A stretch of DNA of 64,000 nt, from IMG/VR virus record IMGVR_UViG_3300029923_000009. One strand, 5' to 3'. This DNA is from a virus (taxonomy: Duplodnaviria; Heunggongvirae; Uroviricota; Caudoviricetes). Below the pieces are notes generated by a model. The model was not told where the DNA came from. It did no database searches and was given only the letters and a program-made list of their open reading frames with translations. This document shows positions 6,475-63,271 of the stretch, piece by piece; the stretch's first letter is position 1; every line of letters begins with the position of its first letter. Both the position numbers and the translations under genes were made by a program.

Positions 6475-6726
6475 ATGAAGACCGAATATGAACAACTTAC
6501 AACAGCAAAGAAAAATATTGCAAAATCTTTGATTAAATACATAACTTTATCCAATAAACTTGGTCAACATGGAACACAAAGTATTGCTTTGATTGATGGT
6601 GTTTATGAAGCATATAACGTTACCAATATGAGTAGTGATGTGTTGGAGTTATTAATGAAGAGTTTAAATAATTGGCACGAGCAAAATGAGGAATTAAAAC
6701 GTATGTTCACACCACCAATTATTTAA
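6475..6726 (+). CDS. hypothetical protein (83 aa)
   Basis: ATG ORF. Confidence 0.5.
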   Translation: MKTEYEQLTTAKKNIAKSLIKYITLSNKLGQHGTQSIALIDGVYEAYNVTNMSSDVLELLMKSLNNWHEQNEELKRMFTPPII

Positions 6727-6768
6727 CAAATTTCATTTCCATATATCAGAGTTAAAGACTATCTTTGT
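6723..6768 (+). promoter_or_regulatory. early-class promoter
   Basis: TTAACAAATTTCATTTC ... TATCTTTGT. Confidence 0.55.
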
Positions 6769-6789
6769 ATTATAATTAAAACAAAATGT

Positions 6790-7029
6790 ATGATAAAAGA
6801 GGAATCAAATTATTTTAAATGTAAATCAACAGAATATTCTACATTTTTAAAAAATAGAATTTATCATAAAGATTTAATAGGTAAGTATCTAATATCAGAA
6901 CCAAATGATTGGGTATTAGTACCATCATATCCTACTTATCAAGAAATAATTGAAATAATTGAAATAGGTGATGATGTTCAAATTAAAAAATTATTGAAAT
7001 TATTAAAAATATGGAGAAAAGAATTATGA
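6790..7029 (+). CDS. hypothetical protein (79 aa)
   Basis: ATG ORF; early promoter 6723-6768. Confidence 0.5.
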   Translation: MIKEESNYFKCKSTEYSTFLKNRIYHKDLIGKYLISEPNDWVLVPSYPTYQEIIEIIEIGDDVQIKKLLKLLKIWRKEL

Positions 7030-7229
7030 ACTCATCAGAAAACGAAATAAAATTTTGTAATTATATTATTGATAAGGTTATAAAATCAAATGGCGGTGGT
7101 GATTTAAAAGAATTACAGGAACTAGTTCAGGCAGATACAGTTGGAATTTCTCCCGAATATTCAGAAGTTTACACAAAGGAAATATCAATATCTTTCGATG
7201 GTGATGAGTTGGTTAAGAATAATTTATAA
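7026..7229 (+). CDS. hypothetical protein, paralog family A (67 aa)
   Basis: Start moved to ATG 7026 (ATGA overlap), which aligns with the paralog at 6227. Confidence 0.5.
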   Translation: MNSSENEIKFCNYIIDKVIKSNGGGDLKELQELVQADTVGISPEYSEVYTKEISISFDGDELVKNNL

Positions 7230-7235
7230 ATAAAT

Positions 7236-7251
7236 ATACTCATTTGAGTAT
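7236..7251. repeat. TACTCA-NN-TGAGTA palindrome (copy 2)
   Basis: ATACTCATTTGAGTAT; 22 nt before ATG 7273. Confidence 0.6.
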
Positions 7252-7272
7252 CTAATAAATACATTTAATACA

Positions 7273-7752
7273 ATGGAAAATTCAATTAAAATATACGATG
7301 GTTTTATTGCAGATAAAAATACTGAACTACACTATGACCTTGAACGCTTAGACGAGTGGTTCGATCATTGTCCTGTTGAGGGTATAAGTAATTATCGTTC
7401 CGATAAAAGTTGTTTAAATCATTGGAGAATTATTGATAACGGAGAGTTTTTTACTATCATTAGTAAACCTAATTTTACAGAGGGTAAGTGCGATTATTAT
7501 AAACGGCTTGTGATTTGTAAACTTGTTAAAGATGATATGTGGAAGTACATAAACAAATTTAATTTAAGTCCTTGTATTTATAAGTTTGGTGAGGATGACC
7601 AATTTGAAAATTTTCCTGTAGATGAAGAAACATTAATTATATTAAGTGGATTTTCAGAAATTGTGATGGATTTGTTTGTTGAAGACAGTGAATCGTGTGA
7701 AAAATTATTAGACGTAATAAATATTAAAAATTTATATTATCATGAAAAATGA
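7273..7752 (+). CDS. hypothetical protein (159 aa)
   Basis: ATG ORF; ATACTCA-TT-TGAGTAT palindrome 22 nt upstream. Confidence 0.55.
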   Translation: MENSIKIYDGFIADKNTELHYDLERLDEWFDHCPVEGISNYRSDKSCLNHWRIIDNGEFFTIISKPNFTEGKCDYYKRLVICKLVKDDMWKYINKFNLSPCIYKFGEDDQFENFPVDEETLIILSGFSEIVMDLFVEDSESCEKLLDVINIKNLYYHEK

Positions 7753-10232: not shown

Positions 10233-10430
10233 ATGGAAATTGAACAATGGATTTGTATTGGTATTATTGTATTAGCTTTATTATGTTTAATAACTAAAGT
10301 GATTTATAGGTGGATAGTTATTGGTAACCTGTTATGTGCTTTAGGTCTTCATGATTTTGGAGATTCACAAAGTGGTGTAATGTTCAGTAATATAACTTGT
10401 AACAGATGCGGGCATACAGACATTGAATAA
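10233..10430 (+). CDS. small membrane protein (65 aa)
   Basis: hydrophobic N-terminus; CNRCGH at C-terminus. Confidence 0.45.
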   Translation: MEIEQWICIGIIVLALLCLITKVIYRWIVIGNLLCALGLHDFGDSQSGVMFSNITCNRCGHTDIE

Positions 10431-10486
10431 TTAACAAATTTGATTTTGATAACCAAAAGTAAAATATTATCTTTGTATATCAATTA
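10431..10486 (+). promoter_or_regulatory. early-class promoter
   Basis: TTAACAAATTTGATTTTG ... TATCTTTGT. Confidence 0.5.
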
Positions 10487-10516
10487 AAAATTAAAACAAT
10501 TTAAATAAAAAACATT

Positions 10517-31109: not shown

Positions 31110-31117
31110 ATAATATT

Positions 31118-31163
31118 TTAACAAATTTCATTTTACTAGTCCAATTAAATAAATTATCTTTGT
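31118..31163 (+). promoter_or_regulatory. early-class promoter (DUF262 operon)
   Basis: TTAACAAATTTCATTTTAC ... TATCTTTGT. Confidence 0.55.
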
Positions 31164-31194
31164 ATTATAAAATAAATTTAAATTAAAATATATT

Positions 31195-31652: not shown

Positions 31653-32501
31653 ATGGGAAAAATTAACAGAACACAACTTGAAATTGAAAAACTACTTTTA
31701 GAACCTTTTAAAGTTGGTGAGGTAGTTAGTGTAGACGAACGTTTGGTAGGTAATAGAGGATCTTCCAAAACATCTGCTAAAATTATTGAGATTGATGGTG
31801 ATGAAGTTGTTTTGGAAGCGTTCGGTGGTTATAAAGATAAAAAAACGTATAAAGTTCACATATCCAACTTAGGAAAAAGTATTTATTACGTTGGTTATTC
31901 CCCGATGGTAAGACCATCATATCGCTTAGAAACCATTAATTTCTCACTTGAATCAATTGTTTTTGATTGTGGTTTTGATAGACGTGAAAGAAAATTTAAA
32001 CCAGATGAAAATATTGGTGAAATTACTGTACCAGAATTGAATTGGAACCCATATGTAATTCAATCTGATGGTTCAAAATTTTATTATCAACGAGAGTTTG
32101 TTTGGACATTGGAGGATAAACAATCATTTATTGATTCAATTTATAACAACATATCTTTAGGTAAGGTTATTTTAAGGGAACGTGGTTTTGAATGGAATAG
32201 ACAACAGGCATTACTTGGAAATACGGTGTTTGGTTATAAAGATATTGTTGATGGAAAACAACGTTTGAACTGCATTCTATCGTTTTTACAGGATGAATTT
32301 CCAGATTCAAAAGGATTTTATTATTCTGAATTTTCAAAAGCATCCCAAAACCAATTTTTAAATCACCAATTGCTTGGCTATGCAAAATTAGATGAAAACG
32401 CATCTGATAAAGATGTTATCGATTGTTTCCTTAGAACAAACTTTTCAGGAGTACAAATGAGTAAAGAGCACTTAGAGTATATTAAGACTATTAAATTATA
32501 A
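31653..32501 (+). CDS. protein with DUF262 (ParB/Srx-like, DGQQR-motif) domain (282 aa)
   Basis: Residues ~145-282: FYYQREFVWTLEDKQSFIDSIYNNISLGKVIL ... IVDGKQRLNCI match the DUF262 N-terminal domain of GmrSD-type proteins (QR..VW...Q...LIDSI / DGQQR); a 140-aa N-terminal extension is unassigned. Confidence 0.6.
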   Translation: MGKINRTQLEIEKLLLEPFKVGEVVSVDERLVGNRGSSKTSAKIIEIDGDEVVLEAFGGYKDKKTYKVHISNLGKSIYYVGYSPMVRPSYRLETINFSLESIVFDCGFDRRERKFKPDENIGEITVPELNWNPYVIQSDGSKFYYQREFVWTLEDKQSFIDSIYNNISLGKVILRERGFEWNRQQALLGNTVFGYKDIVDGKQRLNCILSFLQDEFPDSKGFYYSEFSKASQNQFLNHQLLGYAKLDENASDKDVIDCFLRTNFSGVQMSKEHLEYIKTIKL

Positions 32502-33042: not shown

Positions 33043-33054
33043 ATTAATATAAGT

Positions 33055-33090
33055 TAAAGGATTTGCGAAAGTAAGTCCTTTTCTTTACTT
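33055..33090 (+). terminator. rho-independent terminator
   Basis: AAAGGATTTGCGAAAGTAAGTCCTTTTCTTT; same GCGAAAG loop architecture as 2964. Confidence 0.5.
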
Positions 33091-33094
33091 TTGT
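33086..33094 (+). promoter_or_regulatory. -7 box TACTTTTGT
   Basis: After terminator 33055-33090. Confidence 0.4.
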
Positions 33095-33137
33095 ATCATA
33101 ATAATTTTAATTAAAAACATCTAATAAACCAATAGTT

Positions 33138-34774: not shown

Positions 34775-35041
34775 ATGGACTACATACATAAAACTTCAAC
34801 CATCGGTTTCTTGGGAAGCTCTTACAATTCTAAATGCAAAGGTATTCTTGAAGATGGGGCTATTGAAATTGAACAACCTAAAGAATGGTGTAAAAATCTT
34901 GTATGCGTTGTTGATAATGGAGAATTTGGTGCTTCGGCATTTGTTCGTGATGAATCTGATTTTGGAAGATGTACAAATCCAAACGACATTAGACCAACAA
35001 GATGGTTTATCTGGAATAAAGTAGAATCATATATTGACTAA
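34775..35041 (+). CDS. hypothetical protein (88 aa)
   Basis: ATG ORF. Confidence 0.5.
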   Translation: MDYIHKTSTIGFLGSSYNSKCKGILEDGAIEIEQPKEWCKNLVCVVDNGEFGASAFVRDESDFGRCTNPNDIRPTRWFIWNKVESYID

Positions 35042-35059
35042 AATAACAATTAAAATATT

Positions 35060-35356
35060 ATGAAAGATAATAAAATATTAGAATTAATAGACAGTTATTG
35101 GAAATTTGATGATGATCAATACCCAGCCTCATCGTATCACGATAAACAAGATTTATTGTTAGCAATTGAAGATGAACTATATGCTCAATTAGCAGCTGTT
35201 CGTAATAAAATGAGTCCAATCAAAAATTTAATTGCTTTGGTGGAAAATTTTAATGTTAACTTAATAGCGGAAGAAACAAACGTAAGTAAACTTTTCAAAG
35301 TTGAAATAGTTAAATCGAAAAATGTAATTAAACAAATTTGTCAAACAGAAGATTAA
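35060..35356 (+). CDS. hypothetical protein (98 aa)
   Basis: ATG ORF. Confidence 0.5.
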   Translation: MKDNKILELIDSYWKFDDDQYPASSYHDKQDLLLAIEDELYAQLAAVRNKMSPIKNLIALVENFNVNLIAEETNVSKLFKVEIVKSKNVIKQICQTED

Positions 35357-35373
35357 ATTAAATAAGATATATT

Positions 35374-35649
35374 ATGGGAATGGATGAAAAATTAGCATAT
35401 GACTGTAATGATTATATTAAACGGGCAGTTAGATCGACAATATCGACAATGGTACAACCAAAAATTATAAGCACAAAAAAAGATTTACTTCTTAAAAAGA
35501 AAAAATATCTTGAGTATATGCTCGAATACTATACTAAGGAACGTGACAAAAAAGATGTAAGTAGTCTTATCACATTACCATTTACACTTGCCGTAAACAC
35601 GACAAAAGATTCACTTGATTTGGTTGATATAATGTTAATAGATTTATAA
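35374..35649 (+). CDS. hypothetical protein (91 aa)
   Basis: ATG ORF. Confidence 0.5.
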   Translation: MGMDEKLAYDCNDYIKRAVRSTISTMVQPKIISTKKDLLLKKKKYLEYMLEYYTKERDKKDVSSLITLPFTLAVNTTKDSLDLVDIMLIDL

Positions 35650-35707
35650 ATAAAAATAACAACACACATTGGAAAATAAAGAATTACTTAGTGAGATTTT
35701 GGATTCA

Positions 35708-35902
35708 ATGAAAGAATTTAAAATAATTGCTTATGGTGAGGATGAACATATTGCAAATAAAATCATGGCTGTAATTAAATCATCATTACTCACTAAAATA
35801 AATACGCTTATAGTTAGTAGTACCGATATTTGTGATTATGATGCTGGATATATTATGGCACTAGAGGGTGTTTCAAACCTCATTGATGACGAATTATCTT
35901 AA
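35708..35902 (+). CDS. hypothetical protein (64 aa)
   Basis: Track start 35669 is TTG; first ATG 35708; the start is uncertain. Confidence 0.4.
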   Translation: MKEFKIIAYGEDEHIANKIMAVIKSSLLTKINTLIVSSTDICDYDAGYIMALEGVSNLIDDELS

Positions 35903-36150
35903 AAAAGCTTAATTAATTTGTATATTTGAATTATTTATTATATTTTTACAGTCCAATTAATAGATAACCAACACAAAATTGTCTTTATTCCAAAATAATA
36001 CATAAACAATATAAAAATAACCCCTTAAATTTGTTTTAATCAATGAAATACCTTACATTTGCAAACTGTTTTTTTTAATAACAATCGGTAGGTGATTACA
36101 ACCATTAAAAACAAAATGGATTTTTCGCCTATCAAAAAATTTAACTTGAT

Positions 36151-37734
36151 ATGAAAAATTTAAATGTGAAACAAGACTTGAAAGAATTGGTTACGCAAAT
36201 TGACGTAACTCCAAATGTGAATTTTTTAACAACATTAAGAAATTCTGGTTATAATAATTATACGGCTATTGCTGATATAATTGATAACTCGTTAGATACA
36301 GATGTAAACTCTAAAAACGTTAAGGTTCAAATTAAGAGAACTAAAGATGATTACGAGTTTATTAAAATTTGTGATGATGGGTGTGGTATGAATATTGAAA
36401 CTCTTAATGAGGCCTTTAAGCTTGGTGCGTTAATGGGTAAAAATAAAGAATTTGATCTTGGTTCGTATGGGACTGGGTTAAAGGCAGCGGCTCTATCATT
36501 GGGTCGTAAATTTGTTGTTAAAACTAAAGCGTCAGATGACGATTTTTATATCGCTACATATGATTTGGATGTTATGATAATGACAAATACATTTGAAATT
36601 CCTGTTACAATAGGTAGTTGGGAAGAATATAGTGAATTTAAACGTGAGACTGGAAGTGATATAGGTACAGTTGTGATAGTATCTAAATTAGATAGAATAA
36701 CAAATGCTAATATTACTGTATTCAAGGACATATTAAAAGGTAAACTTGGATTGTTTTATAAGTACTTTATTGATGAATTAAATATTAATTTATTTGTTAA
36801 TAATGAATATATAAAAAGTGTTGATCCAATGCTTAGAAATGAACCATATACTACATGTCTAACATCGAATGAAAAATTTGAGTATAATGAGTCTGAATTT
36901 AGATTCAGCGTATTTAATATTGAGTTCGTTAGCCAATCACTTTCAAATGAAGTAAACCGAAGTTCAGCTTATTCTGGGTTGTATGTTTATAGAAACAATC
37001 GTTTAGTTGGGAGTAGCTTGGATTTAGGTATTGTTGGTAAGGTTGGTGATGGTCACTTAAATGGTCTTAGAATTGAACTATTTTGTAGTGGTGATAGTGA
37101 TAACTTATTTGGCTCAACCTTTAATAAGATTATACACGAAAAAGATAAAAATGAAATCGATCAAGGGTTCAGAGATGTATGTAAAGGTAAACTTCGTGGT
37201 TATATTAAGACAGTAAAAAACAACGAAGATTCTAAAACAACCAACGAAAAGATTAGCGATGATGTTAAAAGTGAAATGGCTGAAATAGTCAAATCAATTA
37301 ACCAAAATCCATTTATTGGAATAAAAAAGGAACGTGGGAAAAATGAGCAACATAAAGATATTATTCCAGCAACAACAGAAAAAGAAAAGAAGGAACCAGT
37401 TGACGATAGGATAAAAAACAAACTTGCTCCTCGAAAAAGAGAAGATAAATTTGCTGATTATCGGTTTACTAAGCTTGGTGAAAATGGGTTAATCTTTAAA
37501 TCGGTTAAGGAACACGGACTATATATTATAGAGATAAATCAAGAGCATCCATTTTGGATTAGATTTTTAAATAATGCAACTCTCCAAACGAAAGATGTAA
37601 TTATTAAAATGTTATTTTCGTTAGGTGTATCTTTAGAAGAAACCGAATATTATAATAACCCTGAAAAGGAAGACTTATTGAATGAGTATTTTATTAAAGT
37701 AAGTGAACGACTAAGGAAGTTTATTATATATTAA
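36151..37734 (+). CDS. GHKL-superfamily ATPase, HATPase_c_3 (MORC/MutL-like) type (527 aa)
   Basis: Bergerat-fold motifs: N box IADIIDNSLD, G1 box DDGCGM, G2 box GSYGTGLKAAALSLG; long Lys/Glu-rich C-terminal extension; monocistronic between a 250-nt gap and terminator 37768-37805. Confidence 0.75.
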   Translation: MKNLNVKQDLKELVTQIDVTPNVNFLTTLRNSGYNNYTAIADIIDNSLDTDVNSKNVKVQIKRTKDDYEFIKICDDGCGMNIETLNEAFKLGALMGKNKEFDLGSYGTGLKAAALSLGRKFVVKTKASDDDFYIATYDLDVMIMTNTFEIPVTIGSWEEYSEFKRETGSDIGTVVIVSKLDRITNANITVFKDILKGKLGLFYKYFIDELNINLFVNNEYIKSVDPMLRNEPYTTCLTSNEKFEYNESEFRFSVFNIEFVSQSLSNEVNRSSAYSGLYVYRNNRLVGSSLDLGIVGKVGDGHLNGLRIELFCSGDSDNLFGSTFNKIIHEKDKNEIDQGFRDVCKGKLRGYIKTVKNNEDSKTTNEKISDDVKSEMAEIVKSINQNPFIGIKKERGKNEQHKDIIPATTEKEKKEPVDDRIKNKLAPRKREDKFADYRFTKLGENGLIFKSVKEHGLYIIEINQEHPFWIRFLNNATLQTKDVIIKMLFSLGVSLEETEYYNNPEKEDLLNEYFIKVSERLRKFIIY

Positions 37735-37767
37735 TTAGATTAATGTAGTTTTTCAATTATTACTAAT

Positions 37768-37805
37768 AAAAAAACCCATAAGCTAAATACTTGTGGGTTT
37801 TTTAT
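37768..37805 (+). terminator. rho-independent terminator
   Basis: AAAAACCCATAAG ... CTTGTGGGTTTTTT. Confidence 0.55.
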
Positions 37806-37845
37806 TAAAATTTGTTAACCAACTTGTTTATTACTATTTTTATTA

Positions 37846-37863
37846 GTACATTTGTATCGAATT
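37846..37863 (+). promoter_or_regulatory. class-II promoter GTACATTTGTATCGAATT
   Basis: Identical 18-mer also at 41270; TTTGTTAACC lies about 21 nt upstream (the -33 TTTG). Confidence 0.55.
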
Positions 37864-37888
37864 AAAAACAAACTTAAAACTAAATTAT

Positions 37889-38290
37889 ATGGAACAACAA
37901 TTAATTGATAAAATAAATAAATTATGCCCAGAAAATCAGGGTATTTTTATTGAACCATTCGGTTGCGATGGAATAAATGAACCATTAATTTATATTCGGT
38001 GGGTTACTGGTGGGATTGGCGGTGGAGGCTATCACGAAGACGATTATCAACGACGATATGATGGCAACGGTAAACCACAATTTGAAGTATTAAATTTGGT
38101 TTTAAAAGAACTGAAACAAAATATAACGTTCTCACAATTTAAAGAAATTGAAGAATTAATCATATCAACAGAGAAAGATGAATTTCCTGACTACTATGGT
38201 AACTTCGAAGAGTATGGAATTGAATATATTAAATTAAGCCAATTAGAAGCACAAATTAATTATTTTAAAACAATTGAAAATTATGACTGA
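37889..38290 (+). CDS. hypothetical Gly-rich protein (133 aa)
   Basis: ATG ORF; class-II promoter 37846-37863; contains GGIGGGGYHEDDY. Confidence 0.5.
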   Translation: MEQQLIDKINKLCPENQGIFIEPFGCDGINEPLIYIRWVTGGIGGGGYHEDDYQRRYDGNGKPQFEVLNLVLKELKQNITFSQFKEIEELIISTEKDEFPDYYGNFEEYGIEYIKLSQLEAQINYFKTIENYD

Positions 38291-39107
38291 AGTTGAAAAA
38301 ATACATAATGAAATTGATACAGCCCAAGATCGTTTACTCAATCAGGCTATGTTATTAATTTCAATGAATGATGTTTCTCAAGAACTTAAAAGCAAAGCTG
38401 ATAGACTTCTAAAAATTGGGTTTACAAGTAACCCATTGATTAAAGATGTTTTGAATAAAACAAATAGTTTGGTAAAAACAACCGAACAAGCAAATACTAT
38501 TTCTCATTATAAAACCGAGTACCCAGGATTAAAGTTTTTAACCGAAACAGAATTTGATAGGATTTGTGATAAATACAAATTGATTTATGCACCTGTAGCT
38601 AATTATATTAAAGATATACCTGAGGTTAATTTGAAAGAAATTGAAACAGTAATAGAGTTGAACCCAAGCGACTATTTTGTTAATGTAATACAAATAAAGG
38701 TTCGTATAGACAATGAATGTATATCCTATTTAACAGATGAGGAGAAAGAGTTAATATATGTTAAAGGGTTTTATATTAATAATAAAGATTTAATTGGTTC
38801 TGGTTCTGGGATGTATGGTTATAGTCCAGATATAATTGTTTCTAAATTATTGGGTAGATCAATATTGTTTCAATTTAGTACTATTCACTGTGATATTATA
38901 GCTAGGGTAGAAAAGTCTGGTTTATTTATAGCTGCACCAAAGTCACATTTCAATTTGAATGGATTGGAAAAACAAGGAAAAGGATTTTTTAAAATCTTTA
39001 AAATAGAGCCAAAAGACCCGATTGTTTTTCGATATGTTAATGGTGGAATTCAAGTTATTACCAAATGGGGAAATGAAGCTAATGATCCGAATTTAATAAT
39101 ATTTTAA
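38283..39107 (+). CDS. hypothetical protein (274 aa)
   Basis: Track start 38274 is TTG; ATG 38283 overlaps the upstream stop (ATGACTGA). Confidence 0.55.
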   Translation: MTEVEKIHNEIDTAQDRLLNQAMLLISMNDVSQELKSKADRLLKIGFTSNPLIKDVLNKTNSLVKTTEQANTISHYKTEYPGLKFLTETEFDRICDKYKLIYAPVANYIKDIPEVNLKEIETVIELNPSDYFVNVIQIKVRIDNECISYLTDEEKELIYVKGFYINNKDLIGSGSGMYGYSPDIIVSKLLGRSILFQFSTIHCDIIARVEKSGLFIAAPKSHFNLNGLEKQGKGFFKIFKIEPKDPIVFRYVNGGIQVITKWGNEANDPNLIIF

Positions 39108-40329: not shown

Positions 40330-40887
40330 ATGGAATTAAATGAGTTTGGTAGTAAAATCAAGGGTCTTATGGGCTTAAAAGAAAATAAACAAGTAAATGG
40401 TTTTGGTTGTGTGATGTTGTATGTCTACTTTCCAGAATTTAAAGAGTTACAATCTAAAATTGATGAGAAGGATTTATATAATGATGATACAAAGTCATAT
40501 GGTTTTGAAAAATCGGAACATATTACCCTTTTATATGGTCTCCACGAAGAAGTTAAAGATCAACAAGTTAAAGATATTATGAGTAAATTTGATTTTGAAG
40601 ATGTAGAAATTAAAAATGTTTCTTTATTTAAAAATGAAACATTCGAAGTACTAAAATTTGAAGTTTATAAAGAAAAGTATTTATCTAAATGTAATAAGGA
40701 ACTTTCAAAATTACCTAATACAAACGAATATAAAATATTTAATCCTCATTTAACACTGGCGTATTTAAAATTAGGTGAAGGTGATAAATATATTGAAATG
40801 TTTAAAGACCTGAAATATGAATTACAACCAACAAAAATAGTATATTCAAAAATAGATGGTTCGGAATTAAAAATAAAAATTGATTAA
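40330..40887 (+). CDS. 2H-superfamily phosphoesterase (LigT/ThpR- or Acb1-like) (185 aa)
   Basis: Two H-x-T-x motifs (EHITLLYGL and NPHLTLAYL) about 90 residues apart; ~185 aa, the typical size for 2',3'-cyclic phosphodiesterase / 2'-5' RNA ligase family. Confidence 0.65.
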   Translation: MELNEFGSKIKGLMGLKENKQVNGFGCVMLYVYFPEFKELQSKIDEKDLYNDDTKSYGFEKSEHITLLYGLHEEVKDQQVKDIMSKFDFEDVEIKNVSLFKNETFEVLKFEVYKEKYLSKCNKELSKLPNTNEYKIFNPHLTLAYLKLGEGDKYIEMFKDLKYELQPTKIVYSKIDGSELKIKID

Positions 40888-41081: not shown

Positions 41082-41212
41082 ACTAAACCACCACCAAGCC
41101 GACAGGCTGAAGGAAGGGTATGTTTTGCTTGGATATTAAAAAATACTAATATATTATGTGGTTAATTTGTATAATTATTGCTTTTTATTTTTACTTGGAA
41201 AATGAAGAGCCT

Positions 41213-41240
41213 AACATATATTAAATATTTAATATATGTT
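41213..41240. repeat. perfect 28-bp palindrome
   Basis: AACATATATTAAAT ATTTAATATATGTT; 30 nt upstream of class-II promoter 41270. Confidence 0.6.
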
Positions 41241-41269
41241 AAAGAAATTGTTAATCACATATATTAATC

Positions 41270-41287
41270 GTACATTTGTATCGAATT
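41270..41287 (+). promoter_or_regulatory. class-II promoter GTACATTTGTATCGAATT
   Basis: Identical 18-mer to 37846; ATTGTTAATC upstream; drives the 710-aa gene. Confidence 0.55.
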
Positions 41288-41371
41288 TTAAAACAGTTAT
41301 AAATAAAATTAAACAAGTCCAATTACGAATAAAGTAGTGTTGGAAAGAAAAAAAACAAAAAATTAAAAAAA

Positions 41372-43504
41372 ATGAAAGAACTAACTAATTTAATGCAAGC
41401 ACAATTTGATAAGATGTGCGCTACTGGTAAACTTTTTAGGAGTGAAGTTACTGGTCAAAAAGTTTGGGATGTATATCTTCAAGCTTTTAATCCAGAAGAT
41501 AATCCTATTTTTCGAGATCCAAATTCAACAGTTCATAACTGTAATTTCTGTAAAAATTTTGTTCGTAGGTATGGTAATATTGTTGCTATTGGTGATGATA
41601 ATGAAATTATGTCTATTTGGGGTGTTGATGCACCTGAAGAGTATAAAAATTCAGCAAACACATTAAATAATTTAATAGCAAATTCTAAAATAGTTGAGGT
41701 ATTCTTTGAAACATATAATGAATTAAACTCATTACCTTATGAAAAGAATTGTACTAAAACACAAGCTACATTTAAATTAGGTGTTGAAAAAAATACAAAA
41801 AGGTATACGAAAGAGGAGGCTGAAATGTTCGGTGTTGTAAAGCCAAATGAAGAAATAACTTTCGACCATTTCAATTTATCTATATCAAAACAATTCGTTG
41901 ATCAAACTGGTTCTTCAGTTGAAAGTATAATTGGTAATTATAGAGATTCAAAAAATGTTTTTCAACGTGGGATGGAAGAAATTTCATTAGATACATTGAT
42001 ACTTGTAAAAGATTTAATCAATCAGGAGTCACTACTTGATGGTAAAACTCATTTATTTAAGGTTGAAAAAATGATCACGTTTAAAACAGAATATGAGTCT
42101 AAATCTCAAAAAGAGAAAGATAATTATTGCTGGGTGGCTTCATATAATAATCAGCTTGCTAAGTTCCGTAACGAACTGATTGGTGTACTTTGTAGTGAAT
42201 TGTCTGAGGGTAAGGAACTTAACGAAGCTTGTAAATCTTGGAATAAACGTGTTGATCCAATTAATTATATGAAAACAACTACCCCTATTACCAAGAAACA
42301 AATTGAGGAGGCAAAATTATTTGTAGAGGAAAATGGATTTGTCGAATCTTTTGATAGAAGGTTTGCTACCATTGATGATATAAAGGCATCCGAAATACTT
42401 CACGTTAATATGGGGGATGGATCTATTAAAAATGTTTCAATATTCGATAATGTAAAATCTACTTCGACAAGACACAAGAGGAGTGAATTCGATGGTATTG
42501 ATGAAGTTACAATTGATAAGTTTATGTCTGATATTCTACCTAATTGTACCTCTGTGGAAGCCTTTTTGTTAAGTAAACATGAGGGTAATTTGGTTTCACT
42601 TACCACTTCAAACAAGTCTGAAAGTAAGCCTATTTTTAAATGGAATAATAACTACTCTTGGACTTTTAATGGTAATTTAGCAGGTAAATCTCAAATCAAA
42701 GAAGCTGTTAAAGGACGTGGTGGAAATGTGATTGGTGATGTTAGAATAAGTTTGGCATTCCCTCTAACTACTGATGACTACGATCTTCACGTACAAGATA
42801 CTGATGGAAACCATATTTATTATTCAAATGTAAGACAAAAACACAACTCTTCTGGAATGCTAGATTTAGATGCTCAAGGTGTAGACGGTGCTCAAACCCC
42901 AGAAAAAAGAGTAGAAAACATAATATTTACAGATAAATCAAAAATAAAAAATGGAAATATAAAAATTTGGGTTGAAAATTACTCACAAAGAGGATTAAGA
43001 GTTCCATTTGATATTGAAATTGAAATTGAGGGTGATATTACAACATTAACATATGATAGGAATCATTCAGGTAATAAAGCTGAGGTCGGTAATATTGTAG
43101 TTAAAAATGGTATGTTTGAATTACATCCTGATGCTTATATGACTTTAAAGGAAAGTACAAATTTATCAAAAGAAGTTTATGGGTTGGAAACAAATAATTT
43201 TCATAAGGTTAACTTAGTATGCCTTTCACCTAACCATTGGGGTGATAATAATGTTGGTAATAAGCACTATTTATTTATGTTAGATGGTTGTAAATGTCCA
43301 ACAGATATTAGAAGTTTTCATAATGAAAACCTATTACCTGAATTGGCTGAACATAGAAAAGTATTGGAGGTACTTGGTGCGACTAATATGATTAAGCCAA
43401 CAGATAAACAGCTATCAGGTCTTGGATTTAATGCCACTGTAAGGGATGAGATAGTAGTTAGACTACAAGGTTCATTTAAAAGAGTTATCAAAATTAAATT
43501 TTAA
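41372..43504 (+). CDS. large hypothetical protein (710 aa)
   Basis: Longest ORF in the window; class-II promoter 41270-41287; no motif recognised by eye. Confidence 0.7.
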   Translation: MKELTNLMQAQFDKMCATGKLFRSEVTGQKVWDVYLQAFNPEDNPIFRDPNSTVHNCNFCKNFVRRYGNIVAIGDDNEIMSIWGVDAPEEYKNSANTLNNLIANSKIVEVFFETYNELNSLPYEKNCTKTQATFKLGVEKNTKRYTKEEAEMFGVVKPNEEITFDHFNLSISKQFVDQTGSSVESIIGNYRDSKNVFQRGMEEISLDTLILVKDLINQESLLDGKTHLFKVEKMITFKTEYESKSQKEKDNYCWVASYNNQLAKFRNELIGVLCSELSEGKELNEACKSWNKRVDPINYMKTTTPITKKQIEEAKLFVEENGFVESFDRRFATIDDIKASEILHVNMGDGSIKNVSIFDNVKSTSTRHKRSEFDGIDEVTIDKFMSDILPNCTSVEAFLLSKHEGNLVSLTTSNKSESKPIFKWNNNYSWTFNGNLAGKSQIKEAVKGRGGNVIGDVRISLAFPLTTDDYDLHVQDTDGNHIYYSNVRQKHNSSGMLDLDAQGVDGAQTPEKRVENIIFTDKSKIKNGNIKIWVENYSQRGLRVPFDIEIEIEGDITTLTYDRNHSGNKAEVGNIVVKNGMFELHPDAYMTLKESTNLSKEVYGLETNNFHKVNLVCLSPNHWGDNNVGNKHYLFMLDGCKCPTDIRSFHNENLLPELAEHRKVLEVLGATNMIKPTDKQLSGLGFNATVRDEIVVRLQGSFKRVIKIKF

Positions 43505-43919: not shown

Positions 43920-44113
43920 TGAAAAAATACTTATTTTACCCTGAAAAGTTAAACTAAAATAATTAACAATTTAAAAACTAATCTTAGTTGTTTCTGATAT
44001 GTTTTTAATACAAAAATTCGGGGTGAAATAAGTTGTAAAATAAATTGGTTGTATTGTTTGTAATTCAAATCATATTTTACACAACTTTTACTGTTTTTTT
44101 TACACAACCAATA

Positions 44114-44151
44114 AGAATTGCCAGTTTGTGAAAATCGGTAATTCTTTTTTT
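44114..44151 (+). terminator. terminator-like hairpin
   Basis: AGAATTGCC ... GGTAATTCT followed by TTTTTT. Confidence 0.45.
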
Positions 44152-44189
44152 AATCTATTATATAATAATTAGCTATTTAAAAAACAAAT

Positions 44190-45050: not shown

Positions 45051-45074
45051 AATAAAACATTTAATGTTAAAATA

Positions 45075-45107
45075 CCCTAAGAAACTTGTTTTTTAGGGAT
45101 TTTTTTT
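45075..45107 (+). terminator. rho-independent terminator
   Basis: CCCTAAGAAACTTGTTTTTTAGGG followed by ATTTTTTTT. Confidence 0.55.
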
Positions 45108-45120
45108 GTACATTTGTTTT
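45108..45120 (+). promoter_or_regulatory. class-II promoter core GTACATTTGTTTT
   Basis: Directly after terminator 45075-45107. Confidence 0.45.
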
Positions 45121-45140
45121 GAAATAAAAAAATATGTAAA

Positions 45141-45443
45141 ATGGATAAACGGATTACGGCTTTAAAAACCCAAATTATAAAAGAGAATATGGGTCGTTTA
45201 CTTTCTTTAAATAAAGATGGTATTGTGGATATTGATATTAACGAAAAACTTTGTATTGAGACAACCTTGGACTATGGTTTTTTCATAACAAAATTAATTT
45301 GTGAAGAAAGTACTATTTCGGTTATATCAAACCATTTTAAAGATGGTGAAAAGTGTGATACTGATATTCGTTTATTTGATTTAGAAAGCATTGACTATTT
45401 TATCACAAATATATTAGAACGTTTAATTAACAATCAAAAATAA
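45141..45443 (+). CDS. hypothetical protein (100 aa)
   Basis: ATG ORF; class-II promoter 45108-45120. Confidence 0.5.
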   Translation: MDKRITALKTQIIKENMGRLLSLNKDGIVDIDINEKLCIETTLDYGFFITKLICEESTISVISNHFKDGEKCDTDIRLFDLESIDYFITNILERLINNQK

Positions 45444-47312: not shown

Positions 47313-48344
47313 ATGAAAAAACTTTGCAAATTCTCGGACATAGGTCAATTTAGGGAAATTTATTCAACAATTAAACATAGAACGCAATACATTGGTAAGG
47401 ATGAAAATGGGGACTGTATGTATGATACAACAATTCCTCTTCCAATTATCAAAGTTTCAGGTACAATAAAAATTGATGGAACAAACGGAGGGATTTCAAT
47501 GAATAAAAATGGTGAAATCTGGGCTCAATCAAAAGACAATATATTGACTTTAAAGAATGATAATTATAATTTTGCTTTCACGTTAGAATCAAAAAAAGAT
47601 GTTTTTAAAGATCTACTAAATAAAATTGATTTCAAAGGATATGATTACATAACTATTTTTGGTGAATTTGCAGGAAAAGGGATACAGGCTGGAATGGCCG
47701 TATGTCAGCTTCCAAGAATATTTGTTATATATGACATTAAGCGATCATATGAAGATAATTCAAAAGGTGATAATAAATATGCGCCAATAGATCAAATTAA
47801 ACTATTGCGTTCACCTGAAAATGATATTTATAACATATATGACTTCCCAACGTTTGAAGTTGAAATTGATTTTAACGAGCCTCAGGCAGCTTTAGATAAA
47901 CTAACTGAAATAACTACCCAAGTTGGTATTAAATGCCCATTTGGTGACGCTATGGGTGTTGAAGGTAGGGGAGAAGGCATAGTTTACACTTTCTTTACTG
48001 AAACTGGTGAAAAACTTAGGTTTAAAGTAAAAGCCGAAAAAAGTAAAATTTCAAAAACGAAGGAATTGGTTGCAATCGATATAGATAGAATGAATTCAAT
48101 TAATGAATTTATTGAGTATGCTGTTACTGAAAATAGATTAAACCAAGGGCTTGAAAAAATATACGGTAACGGAGTTTTGTTTATTGAGAAGATGGGTGAT
48201 TTCTTGAGATGGTTAGCTAATGATATTATTAAAGAAGAAACAGATGTTTTGATTGGGAATAATTTGGAACCAAAAGCCGTTACAGGTGGTATATCAAAAA
48301 AAGGTAGAGATTGGTTGTTGGCTAAAATAAATAATTTCGAATAG
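47313..48344 (+). CDS. ATP-dependent RNA ligase, Rnl2-like (343 aa)
   Basis: Covalent nucleotidyltransferase motifs: I KIDGTN (cf. T4 Rnl2 KIHGTN), III IFGEFAGKG, IV GEGIVYTF, V LRFKVKAEK; length close to T4 Rnl2. Confidence 0.8.
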   Translation: MKKLCKFSDIGQFREIYSTIKHRTQYIGKDENGDCMYDTTIPLPIIKVSGTIKIDGTNGGISMNKNGEIWAQSKDNILTLKNDNYNFAFTLESKKDVFKDLLNKIDFKGYDYITIFGEFAGKGIQAGMAVCQLPRIFVIYDIKRSYEDNSKGDNKYAPIDQIKLLRSPENDIYNIYDFPTFEVEIDFNEPQAALDKLTEITTQVGIKCPFGDAMGVEGRGEGIVYTFFTETGEKLRFKVKAEKSKISKTKELVAIDIDRMNSINEFIEYAVTENRLNQGLEKIYGNGVLFIEKMGDFLRWLANDIIKEETDVLIGNNLEPKAVTGGISKKGRDWLLAKINNFE

Positions 48345-60689: not shown

Positions 60690-60869
60690 ATGAATATGAA
60701 AAATAAAAAAACAACAATTAATTTTACGATTGATCCAGATCTAAAATATGATTTTATTAAAATTAGTGATGAATTTGGTTTTAATAGATCTAAAATGATT
60801 TCTAATTTTATTAGAAAATGGTGTGAAGAAAATAAGAGTATTAACAATTTAAAGAATGACGAAAGATGA
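60690..60869 (+). CDS. putative ribbon-helix-helix (Arc/CopG-like) DNA-binding protein (59 aa)
   Basis: ATG ORF absent from the track, which shows a minus-strand ORF here; TTINFTIDPDLKYDFIKISDEFGFNRSKMISNFIRKW fits a beta-strand + two-helix RHH pattern; its stop overlaps the start of 60856 by 14 nt. Confidence 0.4.
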   Translation: MNMKNKKTTINFTIDPDLKYDFIKISDEFGFNRSKMISNFIRKWCEENKSINNLKNDER

Positions 60870-62142
60870 ATTTATTAAAAAAGCAAAAGCAAAACATGGT
60901 GACAAATATGATTATTCACTGGTTGAATATGTAAAATCAAATATCAAAGTAATCATAATTTGTCCAGAACATGGCGAATTTTTACAATTACCAAATTCCC
61001 ATTTGGTGGGTAATGGGTGTAACAAATGTGGAATAAAATTAAAAAGTGATAAACTTAGGCACAACAATGATATTTTTATCTCTAAAGCAATTGTGATACA
61101 TGGAGATAAATATAATTATACTAAGATAGATTATAAAAATGCTCAAACTAAAGTATGTATCATTTGTCCTATACATGGTGAATTTTGGCAAACACCAAGT
61201 GATCATTTACAAGGTAGGGGATGTTCTATGTGTGGAAATGTTAATAGATCTTTAAGCAAAACTAATAATACTGAATACTTTATTAAAAAATCTAATAAAA
61301 AACATAATTTTAAATATGATTATTCCAAGACTAATTATGTAAATAGTGAGAGTGACGTATGTATAGTTTGCCCAGAACATGGGGAGTTTTATCAAAAAGC
61401 TAATTCACACATGATTGGTTATGGATGTTCTAAATGTGGCGGAAACTTTATGGATTTAGATACATTCATTGAAAAATCTAAAGAAAAACATAATAATAAA
61501 TTCACATATGAAAATGTTGATTACATAAATTCAATAATTAAAGTAGATATAACATGCCCGATTCATGGCGAATTTTGGCAAACACCAAATAGTCATTTAG
61601 ATGGTAAAGGATGCCCTAAGTGTTCAGGTAGTTATATGGATTATAATTATTTTATTGAAAAAACAAAACTAATTCATAGAGATAAATATGATTATTCAAA
61701 GGTAGAATATAAAGGAACCAATATAAAGGTTAAAATAATATGCCCTATTCACGGAGAATTTTGGCAAACACCTCATAATCATTTAAAAGGTCAGGGATGT
61801 CCTAAATGTAATGAAAGTAAAGGTGAAAAAATTGTAAATCAAACATTAACAAATTTTAAACTTAAATTTATTCGGGAACATAAATTTGATGATTGTAGAT
61901 ATAAATATTCTCTCCCATTTGATTTTTATATTCCTAAATATAATACTTGTATTGAATACGATGGGGAACAACATTATAAACAAGTAGATAGATTTGGTGG
62001 AATAGAAGGTTTTGAATCAATTCAAAGAAATGATAAAATAAAAACCCAATATTGCCTTGATAATAATATTAAGTTAATTAGAATTCCTTATACGGAATTT
62101 AATAATATAGAAGAAATATTAAATAAAGAAATTTATGATTGA
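60856..62142 (+). CDS. multi-zinc-finger protein with C-terminal Vsr/DUF559-like PD-(D/E)xK nuclease domain, candidate homing endonuclease (428 aa)
   Basis: Five tandem ~45-aa modules (CPxHGEFxQxPxxHLxGxGCxKCg); C-terminus PFDFYIPKYNTCIEYDGEQHY...QRNDKIKTQYCLDNNIKLIRIP matches the DUF559 very-short-patch-repair-like endonuclease pattern. Confidence 0.65.
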   Translation: MTKDEFIKKAKAKHGDKYDYSLVEYVKSNIKVIIICPEHGEFLQLPNSHLVGNGCNKCGIKLKSDKLRHNNDIFISKAIVIHGDKYNYTKIDYKNAQTKVCIICPIHGEFWQTPSDHLQGRGCSMCGNVNRSLSKTNNTEYFIKKSNKKHNFKYDYSKTNYVNSESDVCIVCPEHGEFYQKANSHMIGYGCSKCGGNFMDLDTFIEKSKEKHNNKFTYENVDYINSIIKVDITCPIHGEFWQTPNSHLDGKGCPKCSGSYMDYNYFIEKTKLIHRDKYDYSKVEYKGTNIKVKIICPIHGEFWQTPHNHLKGQGCPKCNESKGEKIVNQTLTNFKLKFIREHKFDDCRYKYSLPFDFYIPKYNTCIEYDGEQHYKQVDRFGGIEGFESIQRNDKIKTQYCLDNNIKLIRIPYTEFNNIEEILNKEIYD

Positions 62143-63271
62143 AAATTTAATTTTTGAAGCTATTGTTGGTAGCGTTGCTTATGGTACAAATATTGAAACC
62201 AGTGATTTAGATAAAAAGGGTATTTTTTTATGCCCTATTGATAATTTATTATCATTTGGCTATACCGAGCAAATTAATGTAACTAAAGATGAAACGTACT
62301 ATGAGGTTCGTCGATTTTTAGAATTATGTTCTGTCGGAAATCCGACCTGTTTAGAATTGCTATTTTCTGATGATGAATATATTTTACATACATCACCTCA
62401 ATTTGAACTAATACGTGAAAATAGGGATGTGTTTGTAACAAAAAAATGCGCAAATGCCTTTACTTCATATGGTTACAGTCAGATTTCAAAGGCAAATTCG
62501 TTGGGTAAAAAATTAAATTACAATGAAAATGATTATAAATTAAAGACACCTTTAGATTTTATATATTTTTATAATAATGGTAAAACATATTCTTTTAAAG
62601 AATATTTGAACGACAATGGGCTATTACAAGAAAAATGTGGCTTAGTTCGATTGGATCATATGAAAGATTGTTATGCCGTTTATTATGATTACAATAATGA
62701 TGGTTATAGAGGAATAATTGGTGAAAATAGTAATGAGGTTAGATTGTCATCTATTAAAAAAGGAGAAACGCCATTTGTGATGATATATTATAATGTTGAA
62801 GCATATTCAAAGTTCATGAAGGAGTGGAAGGAGTATAATGAATGGTTAAAAAATAGGAACACCCAAAGATATGTTGATGTTAAAAAGCACGGACAAACTC
62901 TAAGTGGTTCATTTATAGATGGTAAGAACCTATTGCATTGTCGGAGGCTCATCGATGTGGGGGTTTCGATTGCCACTACAGGCACTTTTACCGTTAAACG
63001 CCCAAATGCCGACTATTTACTTTCAATCAAACGTGGTGAAGTTCCTTTAGATAAAATAATTGAAGATGCAGAACGCGATATCGCTGGTTTACAGGAATTG
63101 TATGATAAATCAAATTTACCAGAAAAAGTTGATCCACTATTTGTAAAAGAATTATTACTTAAGATTAGGAAAATGCCAATTGATGATATTAATATAATAT
63201 CAACCAAAAGCCTTCCATTTGATTCTAATAAAATAATTGATGAAATATTAAATGAAGAAATTAAACAATGA
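62135..63271 (+). CDS. Pol-beta-superfamily nucleotidyltransferase, RlaP/PF10127-like (378 aa)
   Basis: N-terminal IVGSVAYGTNIETSDLDKKGIF (GS-x9-SDxD NTase motif) followed by RFLELCSVGNPTCLELLFS, which resembles the second conserved block of the family; ATGA overlap. Confidence 0.65.
   Translation: MIENLIFEAIVGSVAYGTNIETSDLDKKGIFLCPIDNLLSFGYTEQINVTKDETYYEVRRFLELCSVGNPTCLELLFSDDEYILHTSPQFELIRENRDVFVTKKCANAFTSYGYSQISKANSLGKKLNYNENDYKLKTPLDFIYFYNNGKTYSFKEYLNDNGLLQEKCGLVRLDHMKDCYAVYYDYNNDGYRGIIGENSNEVRLSSIKKGETPFVMIYYNVEAYSKFMKEWKEYNEWLKNRNTQRYVDVKKHGQTLSGSFIDGKNLLHCRRLIDVGVSIATTGTFTVKRPNADYLLSIKRGEVPLDKIIEDAERDIAGLQELYDKSNLPEKVDPLFVKELLLKIRKMPIDDINIISTKSLPFDSNKIIDEILNEEIKQ

Follow-up and report, generated by a model that had tools for sequence, protein, structure and literature searches.

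What does a GHKL ATPase do when a large phage encodes it as a single gene? The question is raised by one gene in a stretch of 64,000 nucleotides, here called the window, which comes from a large phage, probably with a host among the Bacteroidota. The features of the locus are listed in Table 1. We conclude that the 527-aa product belongs with the prokaryotic MORC proteins among the GHKL ATPases and is an orthologue of neither topoisomerase, rIIA, MutL nor MzaB. Its layout resembles that of MutL and has three parts: an ATPase module (aa ~21-332), a hairpin and linker (aa ~338-429) and a C-terminal domain (aa 435-527). The AF2 model of the whole protein has a pLDDT of 83.

Table 1 Features of the locus, numbered from the first nucleotide of the window
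Feature	Coordinates	Strand	Basis
ORF-free interval, 248 nt, carrying a putative promoter and a 5' leader of roughly 85-90 nt	35903..36150	+	
Predicted Bacteroidota-type promoter: -33 TTTG at 36030-36033, 20-nt spacer, -7 TACATTTG at 36054-36061	36030..36061	+	
CDS, 527 aa, 60.5 kDa, MORC-type GHKL ATPase with novel C-terminal domain	36151..37734	+	ORF call, Pfam, AF2
GHKL (Bergerat-fold) ATP-binding domain, about aa 21-210	36211..36780	+	Pfam, invariant residues, PDB matches to MORC4/3/2
S5-fold transducer domain, about aa 211-332, with MORC signature G276-LYVYRNN-R284-LV and invariant R307, D317 and K326	36781..37146	+	
Pair of long helices (aa 338-364, aa 370-384), interpreted as a hairpin, basic overall	37162..37302	+	AF2 secondary structure
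Predicted disordered, highly charged linker, aa 398-429 (32 residues)	37342..37437	+	pLDDT <50
Novel C-terminal alpha/beta domain, aa 435-527, three strands then three helices, with N463-x-(D/E)-H466	37453..37731	+	
Intrinsic terminator, hairpin then U-run	37764..37807	+	-17.2 kcal/mol, z -5.9

The ATPase module and its relatives

The original prediction assigned the protein to the MORC/MutL-type (HATPase_c_3) GHKL ATPases, and Pfam agrees: HATPase_c_3 matches aa 37-167 with an E-value of 7.5e-20 and 71.8 bits (cutoff 25). The Bergerat boxes quoted at the time are present, DNSLD being motif I, DDGCGM motif II and GSYGTGLK motif III, and all four ATP-binding motifs of the GHKL superfamily can be recognized (acidic-xxx-N, DxGxG, a glycine-rich lid and GT). 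Residue invariance was counted over 85 phage and cellular sequences, with identities down to about 25%. D42, D45 and N46 of motif I, D75, G77 and G79 of motif II, and G104, G107 and G109 of motif III are the same in all 85, and G172 and T173 of motif IV are kept in 84. Judged by its sequence, the ATP site is intact. The general-base position of motif I is occupied by Asp42, in 'AIADIIDN' as against 'AIAELLDN' in MORC, and this residue is invariant in the family. In MORC2, MORC3, MORC4, MutL and GyrB the general base is Glu. The position keeps an acidic residue, but since it is Asp here, hydrolysis may be slow or absent.

In the S5 domain, G276, R281 and R284 of the motif G276-L-Y-V-Y-R-N-N-R284-L-V do not vary among the 85 sequences, and the same holds for R307, D317 and K326. 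A HMMER alignment pairs the motif with 'GIMMYHNNRLI' of MORC4 and 'GIMMYHKNRLI' of MORC3. The phage protein carries the MORC signature GhXhhpXXRhl of the S5 domain (PMC2292703), and it has the arrangement by which MORC proteins were delimited, namely a GHKL domain followed by an S5 fold with a conserved basic residue (Iyer, Abhiman & Aravind 2008). A PDB sequence search matches only MORC2, MORC3 and MORC4, and then TopoVI-B and MLH1.

Among cellular proteins, MzaB from the MZA defence operon is the nearest relative. The two proteins share a homologous GHKL+S5 module, restricted to aa 16-349 of the phage protein (hhalign E 1.9e-50), in which both have Asp at the general-base position, a (Q)G-IYVYRNNRL signature and an invariant S5 lysine. 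Against the NCBIfam equivalog model of MzaB the phage protein reaches 97 bits, over aa 27-293 only and below the cutoff of 850 bits. MZA (MzaABCDE) corresponds to the operon type 'prokaryotic MORC + distinct SFII helicase + RE-fold protein' of Iyer et al. 2008. In a neighbour-joining tree the MzaB clade is separate from the family and not interleaved with it. A few tips of this tree labelled 'noCTD' (L022, L036) lie inside the clade with the C-terminal domain and are probably truncated BLAST alignments.

Eukaryotic MORC2/3/4 and SMCHD1 are 17-20% identical to the phage protein, which differs from them in its C-terminal domain and its Asp general base, and which has no CW zinc finger, chromodomain, other chromatin reader or coiled-coil insertion in the ATPase module. 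MutL is in the same Pfam family and likewise has GHKL+S5, a flexible linker and a small C-terminal domain. The C-terminal domain of MutL is an endonuclease (PMC2292703), whereas the phage protein shows no MutL-type dimerisation/endonuclease domain and stays below the TIGR00585 cutoff. Shedu VcSduA, paraMORC3 and BbrUII/HgiDII also join a GHKL ATPase to a C-terminal effector domain in one chain, and such GHKL-nuclease fusions are lone or near-lone conflict genes, as the phage family probably is too. Their nuclease domains are of the PD-(D/E)xK or RecB type, however, and the phage C-terminal domain has no such motifs. The match of the phage protein to the BbrUII/HgiDII model NF050001 (29 bits, cutoff 550 bits) covers the N-terminal GHKL region only.

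The linker and a novel C-terminal domain

The region behind the ATPase module had been described as a long charged C-terminal tail. This needs correction, as disorder is predicted only at aa 398-429 and aa 435-527 form a well-folded, conserved domain (about 100 aa, pLDDT 93 in AF2). Between module and domain, aa 331-397 have a pI of 9.3 and aa 398-434 are 54% charged; over aa 331-434 the charged fraction is 46% and the net charge +6, which is only mildly basic. G396 and N398, at the N-terminal edge of the linker, are nearly invariant.

No Pfam family matched the C-terminal domain, and a search with its structure against the PDB gave no convincing neighbour. The best neighbours, all weak, are small zincin-like metal-binding folds, and the C-terminal dimerisation domain of HtpG is also among the weak ones. 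Nothing in the domain can be recognised as a signature of dimerisation, nuclease activity or metal binding. N463 and H466 equal the ATPase residues in their invariance, and 69 of the 85 sequences have D or E at position 465. An activity is not defined by two such residues. HNH/His-Me, the zincin HExxH, the inverzincin HxxEH and the MutL DQHA were considered by eye for N-x-(D/E)-H and rejected for misfits in spacing or secondary-structure position.

A profile of the domain matches only proteins of ~500-550 aa, in which it lies at the extreme C-terminus, and shorter sequences that are maybe fragments. Two matches (P0155 and P0177) are of low complexity and were dismissed as repeats or artefacts. 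All eight full-length proteins that were tested carry HATPase_c_3 at the N-terminus. The C-terminal domain is novel and exclusive to the architecture that combines it with HATPase_c_3. No model in Pfam, PHROGs, NCBIfam or PADLOC covers the family over its full length. We found no published description of the family, and literature searches on MzaB/MZA and on bacterial MORC proteins in anti-phage roles gave almost nothing relevant.

Expression signals, distribution and gene neighbourhood

The gene was predicted to stand alone behind the longest gene-free interval of the early region and to have its own terminator. Upstream of 41 kb, 35903-36150 is indeed the longest such interval; among the ORF-free gaps of the whole window it ranks third, behind 41082-41371 and 43920-44189. 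As stated originally, it lacks the early cassette TTAACAAATTyCATTTy-N~21-TATCTTTGT, which a repeat search finds 17 times or more in the region from 1 to 31 kb. The accompanying view that the interval is promoter-poor, with a weak box, does not hold: TTTG-N20-TACATTTG is a perfect match to the sigma-A promoter consensus of Bacteroidota, TTTG / TAnnTTTG (PMC7366714). The window contains 24 instances of the pattern TTTG-N18-22-TANNTTTG, where 5.3 would be expected, and each of the four relatives compared has a TAnnTTTG box at the corresponding place in the alignment. The element would thus be the promoter of the gene, which is our reading of the motif and its conservation. A sigma-70 promoter scan was uninformative (49 sites against 59 expected), as one would expect if the organism uses promoters of another type. 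The terminator was missed by that scan and confirmed by folding. None of 200 shuffled sequences folds as well, and L075, a phage with a 90% identical protein, has kept the stem but has a different loop. The upstream interval is partly conserved in L075 too; at 63% protein identity, nothing beyond the CDS is common to other phages. Rfam returned nothing meaningful for 35600-38000 and no match in the upstream interval. The gene is a stand-alone unit with a real terminator of its own and, in addition, a predicted promoter.

The family comprises about 220 clusters at 50% identity among 1.84 billion representatives. Megablast of 35000-39000 against the INPHARED phages gave no match, and tblastn of the protein gave three weak partial matches, all to uncultured faecal phage contigs. 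The idea that this ATPase is unusual as phage cargo is therefore right for cultured phages, but the family is common in uncultured large phages. The member phages appear to infect very different hosts, and include T4-like marine phages, gut phages and one locus binned with Methanobrevibacter. Members are also found as lone genes in bacterial chromosomes, between sucAB and serA or adjoining ffh, prfB or aroA; one is in a cultured bacterium, Pseudaquidulcibacter saccharophilus SZ9 (locus L026).

About 70% of prokaryotic MORC genes lie in an operon with an SFII helicase, nuclease or methylase (Iyer, Abhiman & Aravind 2008, PMC2292703). This is a contextual and not a defining feature; it is not typical of the 46 member loci, and no conserved neighbour or partner gene was found among them. 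At the source locus the partner search covers the 64-kb window, and the whole phage genome measures at least 263 kb, so a distant partner may exist; among the flanking ORFs scanned there was no match to a helicase or nuclease family, and most neighbours of the gene are without a PHROG match. A DNA N6/N4 methyltransferase is among the five nearest genes in 5 of the 46 loci, directly upstream in four, and in a sixth locus a Dcm-type methylase lies at a distance of two genes. Such methyltransferases adjoin only a minority of members, but they suggest a possible role akin to restriction, which a clamp model leaves unexplained.

Candidate functions

We tentatively favour, at a little under even confidence, the explanation that the protein is a stand-alone MORC: a dimeric, ATP-gated DNA clamp with a second, C-terminal site, carried by phages as an accessory cassette for genetic conflict. 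By analogy with MORC2/3, MutL, Hsp90 and GyrB (GHKL+S5), it would be a constitutive dimer held by the C-terminal domain. Binding of ATP would lead the N-terminal domains to dimerise and close the ring, DNA would be held by the basic middle region and the ring lumen, and ATP hydrolysis would reopen the clamp. The phosphate-sensing lysine would be K326, with Asp42 in place of the usual general-base Glu, and the N463/H466 site may provide a second activity, be it metal or nucleic-acid chemistry or the docking of a target. DNA binding, dimerisation and ATPase activity would be expected of any family member on the same analogy. The cassette would be transcribed by the host RNA polymerase from its own promoter and play its role in conflict between phage and host or between phages. 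Most likely the protein would clamp or compact non-phage DNA, of the host or of a competing element, and thereby disable it. Interference with a host defence that contains a MORC protein is a less likely form of this role.

The original prediction had suggested either a DNA-manipulating ATPase or a decoy or inhibitor of host MORC-like defence proteins. Interference with such a defence could be all that the protein does. As a decoy or poison subunit it would mimic the GHKL+S5 module of a host MORC-type defence ATPase such as MzaB, and form dead heterodimers or titrate the partner. The homology of the N-terminal module to MzaB gives this idea a concrete target, but we regard it as unlikely, because all residues for ATP binding and hydrolysis and the second C-terminal site are invariant over 85 sequences, which would be superfluous in a passive decoy. 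The same architecture is also found in lone bacterial chromosomal genes with no MZA genes nearby, the family spans phages of apparently very different hosts, and the MzaB clade is separate in the tree. We likewise judge it improbable that the protein is a single-chain ATP-dependent nuclease, restriction- or MutL-like, whose N463-x-(D/E)-H466 domain cuts host, rival-phage or unmodified DNA. The conservation of N463, H466 and position 465 argues for such an activity, as do the methyltransferases near some members and the zincin-like neighbours of the domain. The order of ATPase, linker and small C-terminal domain parallels MutL (PMC2292703), and GHKL-nuclease fusions are known in BbrUII/HgiDII, a weak N-terminal match, and in Shedu VcSduA (PMC12137116).

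A functional analogue of T4 rIIA, protecting the infection from prophage-encoded exclusion or abortive-infection systems, would also be phage-encoded and independent of a partner; rIIA proteins are the solo GHKL proteins known to be widespread in phages, and their C-terminal regions are variable and lineage-specific (PMC7824862). Models of rIIA are among the BFVD structural matches with E-values of about 1e-10. Their TM-scores are just 0.34-0.40, however, no better than those of topoisomerases, and homology is undetectable beyond the generic fold: no PHROG family, rIIA included, matches the protein below E 0.1, and a comparison of the family profile with T4 rIIA by hhalign shows no signal (probability 0.2%). 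T4 rIIA itself scores only 22 bits on HATPase_c_3. In addition, rIIA has neither the MORC signature context nor the C-terminal domain of the phage protein, and the ten flanking ORFs that were scanned gave no match to any PHROG family with an rIIB annotation. All this makes the rIIA reading very unlikely. Lastly, the protein might be a chaperone like Hsp90 or supply the ATPase subunit for a type II topoisomerase of the phage; on the evidence of the 64-kb window both readings are effectively refuted. The original prediction already doubted a topoisomerase II role, and we found neither a Toprim domain in the same chain nor closest similarity to the ATPase modules of topo II/IV; as to a GyrA/gp52-like cleavage partner, the ten window ORFs scanned against Pfam, from 64 kb of the genome, contain no topoisomerase domain.

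Eukaryotic MORCs silence transposons. A wider reading of the clamp, possible but rather unlikely, is that the family represents a minimal prokaryotic and viral MORC, free of nuclease and partner, that acts as a self-sufficient ATP-gated clamp to silence or compact foreign DNA and was captured by large phages to shut down host or rival genomes, with N463/H466 marking a new effector or dimerisation domain. If this is true, no simpler system for experiments on MORC action would exist than this family, and compaction-based gene silencing would be a phage weapon or a single-gene form of bacterial immunity. To our knowledge, prokaryotic MORC-type ATPases have so far been described within multi-gene restriction or defence operons. 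What is new here is a MORC engine without partner genes, joined to a conserved C-terminal domain without a Pfam match. As a self-contained cassette that spreads among large phages and into bacterial chromosomes, it offers a tractable single-protein system, for which the homologue of P. saccharophilus SZ9 is an experimental entry point. The family could reveal how a MORC of bacteria or viruses acts on DNA, and whether such a clamp serves phages in offence or in counter-defence against MZA-like systems.

Fold and nucleotide site of the GHKL protein

The open reading frame previously proposed for the GHKL gene was confirmed at the same position, strand and length (Table). In Pfam, the protein matches HATPase_c_3 (E 7.5e-20, 71.8 bits, cutoff 25), with HATPase_c as a second, weaker match, and motif alignment identifies the boxes quoted in the original prediction as canonical Bergerat motifs. 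The residues of motifs I–III are invariant in 85/85 aligned sequences and G172/T173 in 84/85, in an alignment of phage and cellular relatives with identities down to ~25%. The only strong PDB sequence matches, obtained with the family profile, are MORC4/3/2 (1e-16 to 1e-11). A GhXhhpXXRhl motif unites prokaryotic and eukaryotic MORCs and excludes other GHKL proteins (Iyer et al. 2008, PMC2292703). In the GHKL protein this motif reads G276-LYVYRNN-R284-LV, with G276, R281 and R284 invariant in the 85 sequences, and it aligns with the MORC3/4 motif in HMMER. The equally invariant K326 corresponds in the alignment to an invariant lysine of MzaB, the MORC-type ATPase of the MZA (MzaABCDE) anti-phage system. 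The S5 domain usually supplies a phosphate-contacting basic residue, for which K326 is a candidate. The general-base position of motif I is an invariant Asp42 in the family and likewise Asp in MzaB; in MORC2/3/4 it is Glu.

Structure and sequence both assign the N-terminal 330 residues to the MORC branch. The protein was accepted as a member of the GHKL superfamily and, by fold, S5 domain and signature motif, of the MORC family; membership tests for MzaB, MutL, topo II ATPases, rIIA and BbrUII-type enzymes were negative. Very probably it is a stand-alone ATPase of the MORC family that represents a distinct subfamily.

Features of the GHKL gene and protein and of promoter-like elements in the window
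Feature	Position	Strand	Description
GHKL gene CDS	36151-37734	+	527 aa, 60.5 kDa
ORF-free upstream interval	35903-36150		248 nt, no ORF ≥45 aa
Promoter match	TTTG 36030-36033, TACATTTG 36054-36061	+	20 nt between boxes; perfect Bacteroidota consensus
Terminator	37764-37807	+	hairpin, then U-run
Early cassette (examples)	1085-1160, 3581-3656, 10426-10501, 31113-31188		before small + strand ORFs
Second promoter-like element	37805-37887, 41229-41311, 45067-45149		GTTAA..(A)CTTGTT..N..GTACATTTGTaTCGAA, three copies
Motif I	D42-IID-N46		GHKL protein
Motif II	D75-DGCG79-M		GHKL protein
Motif III	G104-SYGTG109-LK		GHKL protein
Motif IV	G172-T173		GHKL protein
GHKL domain	~aa 21-210		AlphaFold2 model
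S5 domain	~aa 211-332		AlphaFold2 model
Two long helices	aa 338-364, 370-384		AlphaFold2 model
Disordered stretch	aa 398-429		AlphaFold2 model
CTD	aa 435-527		AlphaFold2 model; compact, three strands then three helices

A conserved C-terminal domain

The AlphaFold2 model (48 homologues, pLDDT 83, pTM 0.66) does not bear out the long charged tail described earlier: disorder is confined to aa 398–429, and aa 435–527 form a compact predicted C-terminal domain (CTD), which reaches pLDDT 93 when modelled by itself. Charged residues make up 54% of aa 398–434, and aa 331–434 carry a net charge of +6 (pI 9.4). At the linker edge (aa 384–398, window 37300–37344), N384, G396 and N398 are nearly invariant and could make up a short linear motif for binding.

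Pfam gives no CTD match in any of 35 family members, and a PDB sequence search gives no meaningful one. Among 1.84 billion cluster representatives, a CTD profile retrieves 220 clusters at E <1e-3, nearly all proteins of 500–550 aa with the CTD at their extreme C-terminus; the rest are shorter and possibly fragments. All eight full-length CTD-carrying proteins tested have an N-terminal HATPase_c_3 domain. As judged from these searches, the CTD is new and specific to the architecture of the GHKL family. N463 and H466 are invariant in 85/85 sequences, of which 69 have D or E at position 465, within a motif I-N-x-(D/E)-H-P-(F/Y)-(Y/W) where the last strand meets the first helix. That N463/H466 are as conserved as the ATPase site argues for a second functional site in the CTD. 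No nuclease or zincin motif matched the pattern N463-x-(D/E)-H466.

Profile–profile alignment of the GHKL and MzaB families (probability 100%, E 1.9e-50) covers aa 16–349 only, and the last 175 residues of the GHKL protein are unrelated to MzaB. By sequence comparison, MzaB is the closest cellular relative, for the N-terminal module alone. In a neighbour-joining tree of this module, built without support values, the MzaB clade stands apart from the CTD-carrying family, which comprises a phage-rich clade (including the window) and a cell-rich clade. Existing models reach no further than the N-terminal part: Pfam recognises just the GHKL core there, PADLOC and NCBIfam the N-terminal module, and nothing in PHROGs matches.

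Expression signals and genomic setting

The gene-free interval upstream of the GHKL gene ranks third by length among those of the window, and first among those upstream of 41 kb. A repeat search agrees with the original prediction that it lacks the early cassette, and Rfam has no match in it. It is not promoter-poor as had been supposed. The primary sigma factor of Bacteroidota uses TTTG (-33) and TAnnTTTG (-7), not TTGACA/TATAAT (PMC7366714), and a perfect match to this consensus lies within the interval. Across the window the complete pattern is found 24 times where 5.3 are expected, a count reached in 0/100 shuffles. The four relatives compared (the window, L013, L055 and L075, the last with a 90% identical protein) all have a TAnnTTTG box at an aligned position, ~90 nt ahead of the start codon. 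The TACATTTG -7 box also stands at the head of a conserved second promoter type (at 37847, 41271 and 45109), whose 37847 copy is almost identical in L075, though the following ORFs differ (133 vs 115 aa). The perfect match, the conserved box and the shared TACATTTG together suggest, at the level of sequence, that the GHKL gene is served by a host-type promoter of its own, differing in class from the early cassette, and has a leader of ~85–90 nt. The second promoter type may be a distinct temporal class that includes the GHKL gene's TACATTTG box. The early cassette, TTAACAAATTyCATTTy-N~21-TATCTTTGT (~46 nt, at least 17 copies within 1–31200), combines a Bacteroidota-type -7 box with a strongly conserved upstream element and probably represents an early promoter class of the phage. 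Another perfect TTTG-N20-TACATTTG match, inside the GHKL coding sequence (36564–36595) and with no close downstream in-frame start codon, is either chance or an internal promoter. At 33043–33095 and 2954–3006, a terminator-like hairpin (AAAGGATTTGCGAAAGTAAGTCCTTT and a T-run) is fused directly to a TAnnTTTG box.

The predicted terminator was also recovered: its hairpin folds at -17.2 kcal/mol (z = -5.9), matched by 0/200 shuffles, and in L075 the stem is kept while the loop differs. DNA conserved with L075 spans 35624–37868 and takes in a small upstream ORF along with the gap, the gene, its terminator and the promoter after it, and is followed by a two-gene indel; relatives at 63% protein identity share only the CDS with the window. 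For these reasons the gene appears to behave as a mobile accessory cassette. The indel at 37889–39107 consists of two ORFs of 133 and 277 aa, neither with a family match, which come straight after the GHKL terminator/promoter and are missing from the syntenic L075 site; the place resembles a local hot spot where genes are gained and lost.

All genes in the window lie on the + strand, GC content is ~27% and no tRNA genes were found. A 710-aa DUF8224/phrog_1735 protein (41372–43504) is 56% identical to its counterpart in Cellulophaga phage phi4:1, which points to a Bacteroidota host. Full-length homologues of this protein occur in 458 phage records, among them ViI-like Salmonella phages, phiRSL1 and phi4:1, and a 462-kb uncultured phage has one with 62% identity. 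The 282-aa product of 31653–32501, encoded 3.6 kb upstream of the GHKL gene and also upstream in L075, has a GmrSD_N (DUF262) domain and may be an anti-restriction element or a phage-borne enzyme that acts on modified DNA. Genes of the RNA-repair type lie dispersed along the window (40330–40887, 47313–48344, 62135–63271), comprising an RNA-ligase-like protein (phrog_755), an RNA ligase (PF09414) and an RlaP nucleotidyltransferase; L075 carries a TROVE (Ro60-like) gene at 6617–7569. A 428-aa ORF (60856–62142) with five tandem repeats of 186–204 nt has, inside one repeat, a treble-clef zinc-finger module (aa 267–320; DUF723/DUF4379, also CapR-like; Pfam), and related DUF723/DUF4379 proteins occur near GHKL homologues in L010 and L030.

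Distribution and possible mode of action

The exact protein occurs on at least 17 contigs, the longest of 263 kb, and full-length homologues at 30–91% identity on large phage-like contigs. On the T4-like contig L005 the homologue lies beside Gp23, prohead protease and portal genes; further contigs of 70–360 kb have phage-like gene content or come from IMG/VR, and another contig, binned with Methanobrevibacter, carries phage-like homing-endonuclease and nucleotide-metabolism genes. By tblastn against INPHARED, the family is essentially missing from cultured phages. GTDB relatives (25–33% identity, BLAST match to at least residue 469, often 525) are found on large contigs of cellular origin, with housekeeping genes as neighbours. 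In the isolate Pseudaquidulcibacter saccharophilus SZ9 the gene is flanked by sucAB on one side and by an aminotransferase/serA on the other; in a chromosome of Granulicella its neighbours are ffh and a Xer-like recombinase, and in other genomes it adjoins prfB or aroA. One Ignavibacteriaceae MAG has two copies on separate contigs. When five genes on each side were clustered for 67 loci, the 46 CTD-carrying loci had no common neighbours except N6/N4 DNA methyltransferases (5) and tyrosine integrases (6). Three loci from related Clostridia and a contig from IMG/VR (L029/L031/L032/L068) have such a methyltransferase as the immediate upstream neighbour of the homologue.

Established for the protein are a MORC-type GHKL+S5 fold, an intact, strictly conserved nucleotide site, a flexible charged linker and the conserved new CTD with its two invariant residues; the gene has a terminator to itself and no conserved partner among the neighbours compared. 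By analogy with MORC2/3, MutL, Hsp90 and GyrB, it would be a dimer tethered at the C-terminus, the N-terminal domains of which would dimerise upon ATP binding into a closed clamp, with DNA as the most likely cargo; in mode of action it would resemble MORC/MutL-type clamps. Since the family is partner-free in cells as well as in phages, and moves both with integrases and as a phage cassette, we place it in genetic conflict. Our preferred, still tentative, reading is a clamp or compactor acting on DNA that is not the phage's own.

Homology of the N-terminal module to MzaB would also suit a decoy or poison of MzaB-type host defence, but the catalytic sites are conserved and cellular homologues lack partners, and we consider this unlikely. 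An ATP-gated nuclease built on the N..(D/E)H site would account for the invariance of that site, the MutL-like layout and the occasionally adjacent methyltransferases; as no nuclease signature is recognised in the CTD, it too seems improbable. In BFVD an unnamed 494-aa protein scores best (E 6e-20, TM 0.5), ahead of giant-virus unknowns, topoisomerases and rIIA proteins at E ~1e-10. An rIIA-like protector is very doubtful, and a topoisomerase or chaperone role hardly credible.

We found no account of a phage MORC or of the CTD in the searchable literature. We regard the GHKL family as a new, phage-carried architecture, or a new subfamily, among the MORC ATPases of prokaryotes. That a GHKL ATPase should take part in a conflict system is in itself no surprise; a partner-free viral and bacterial MORC is an attractive minimal system.
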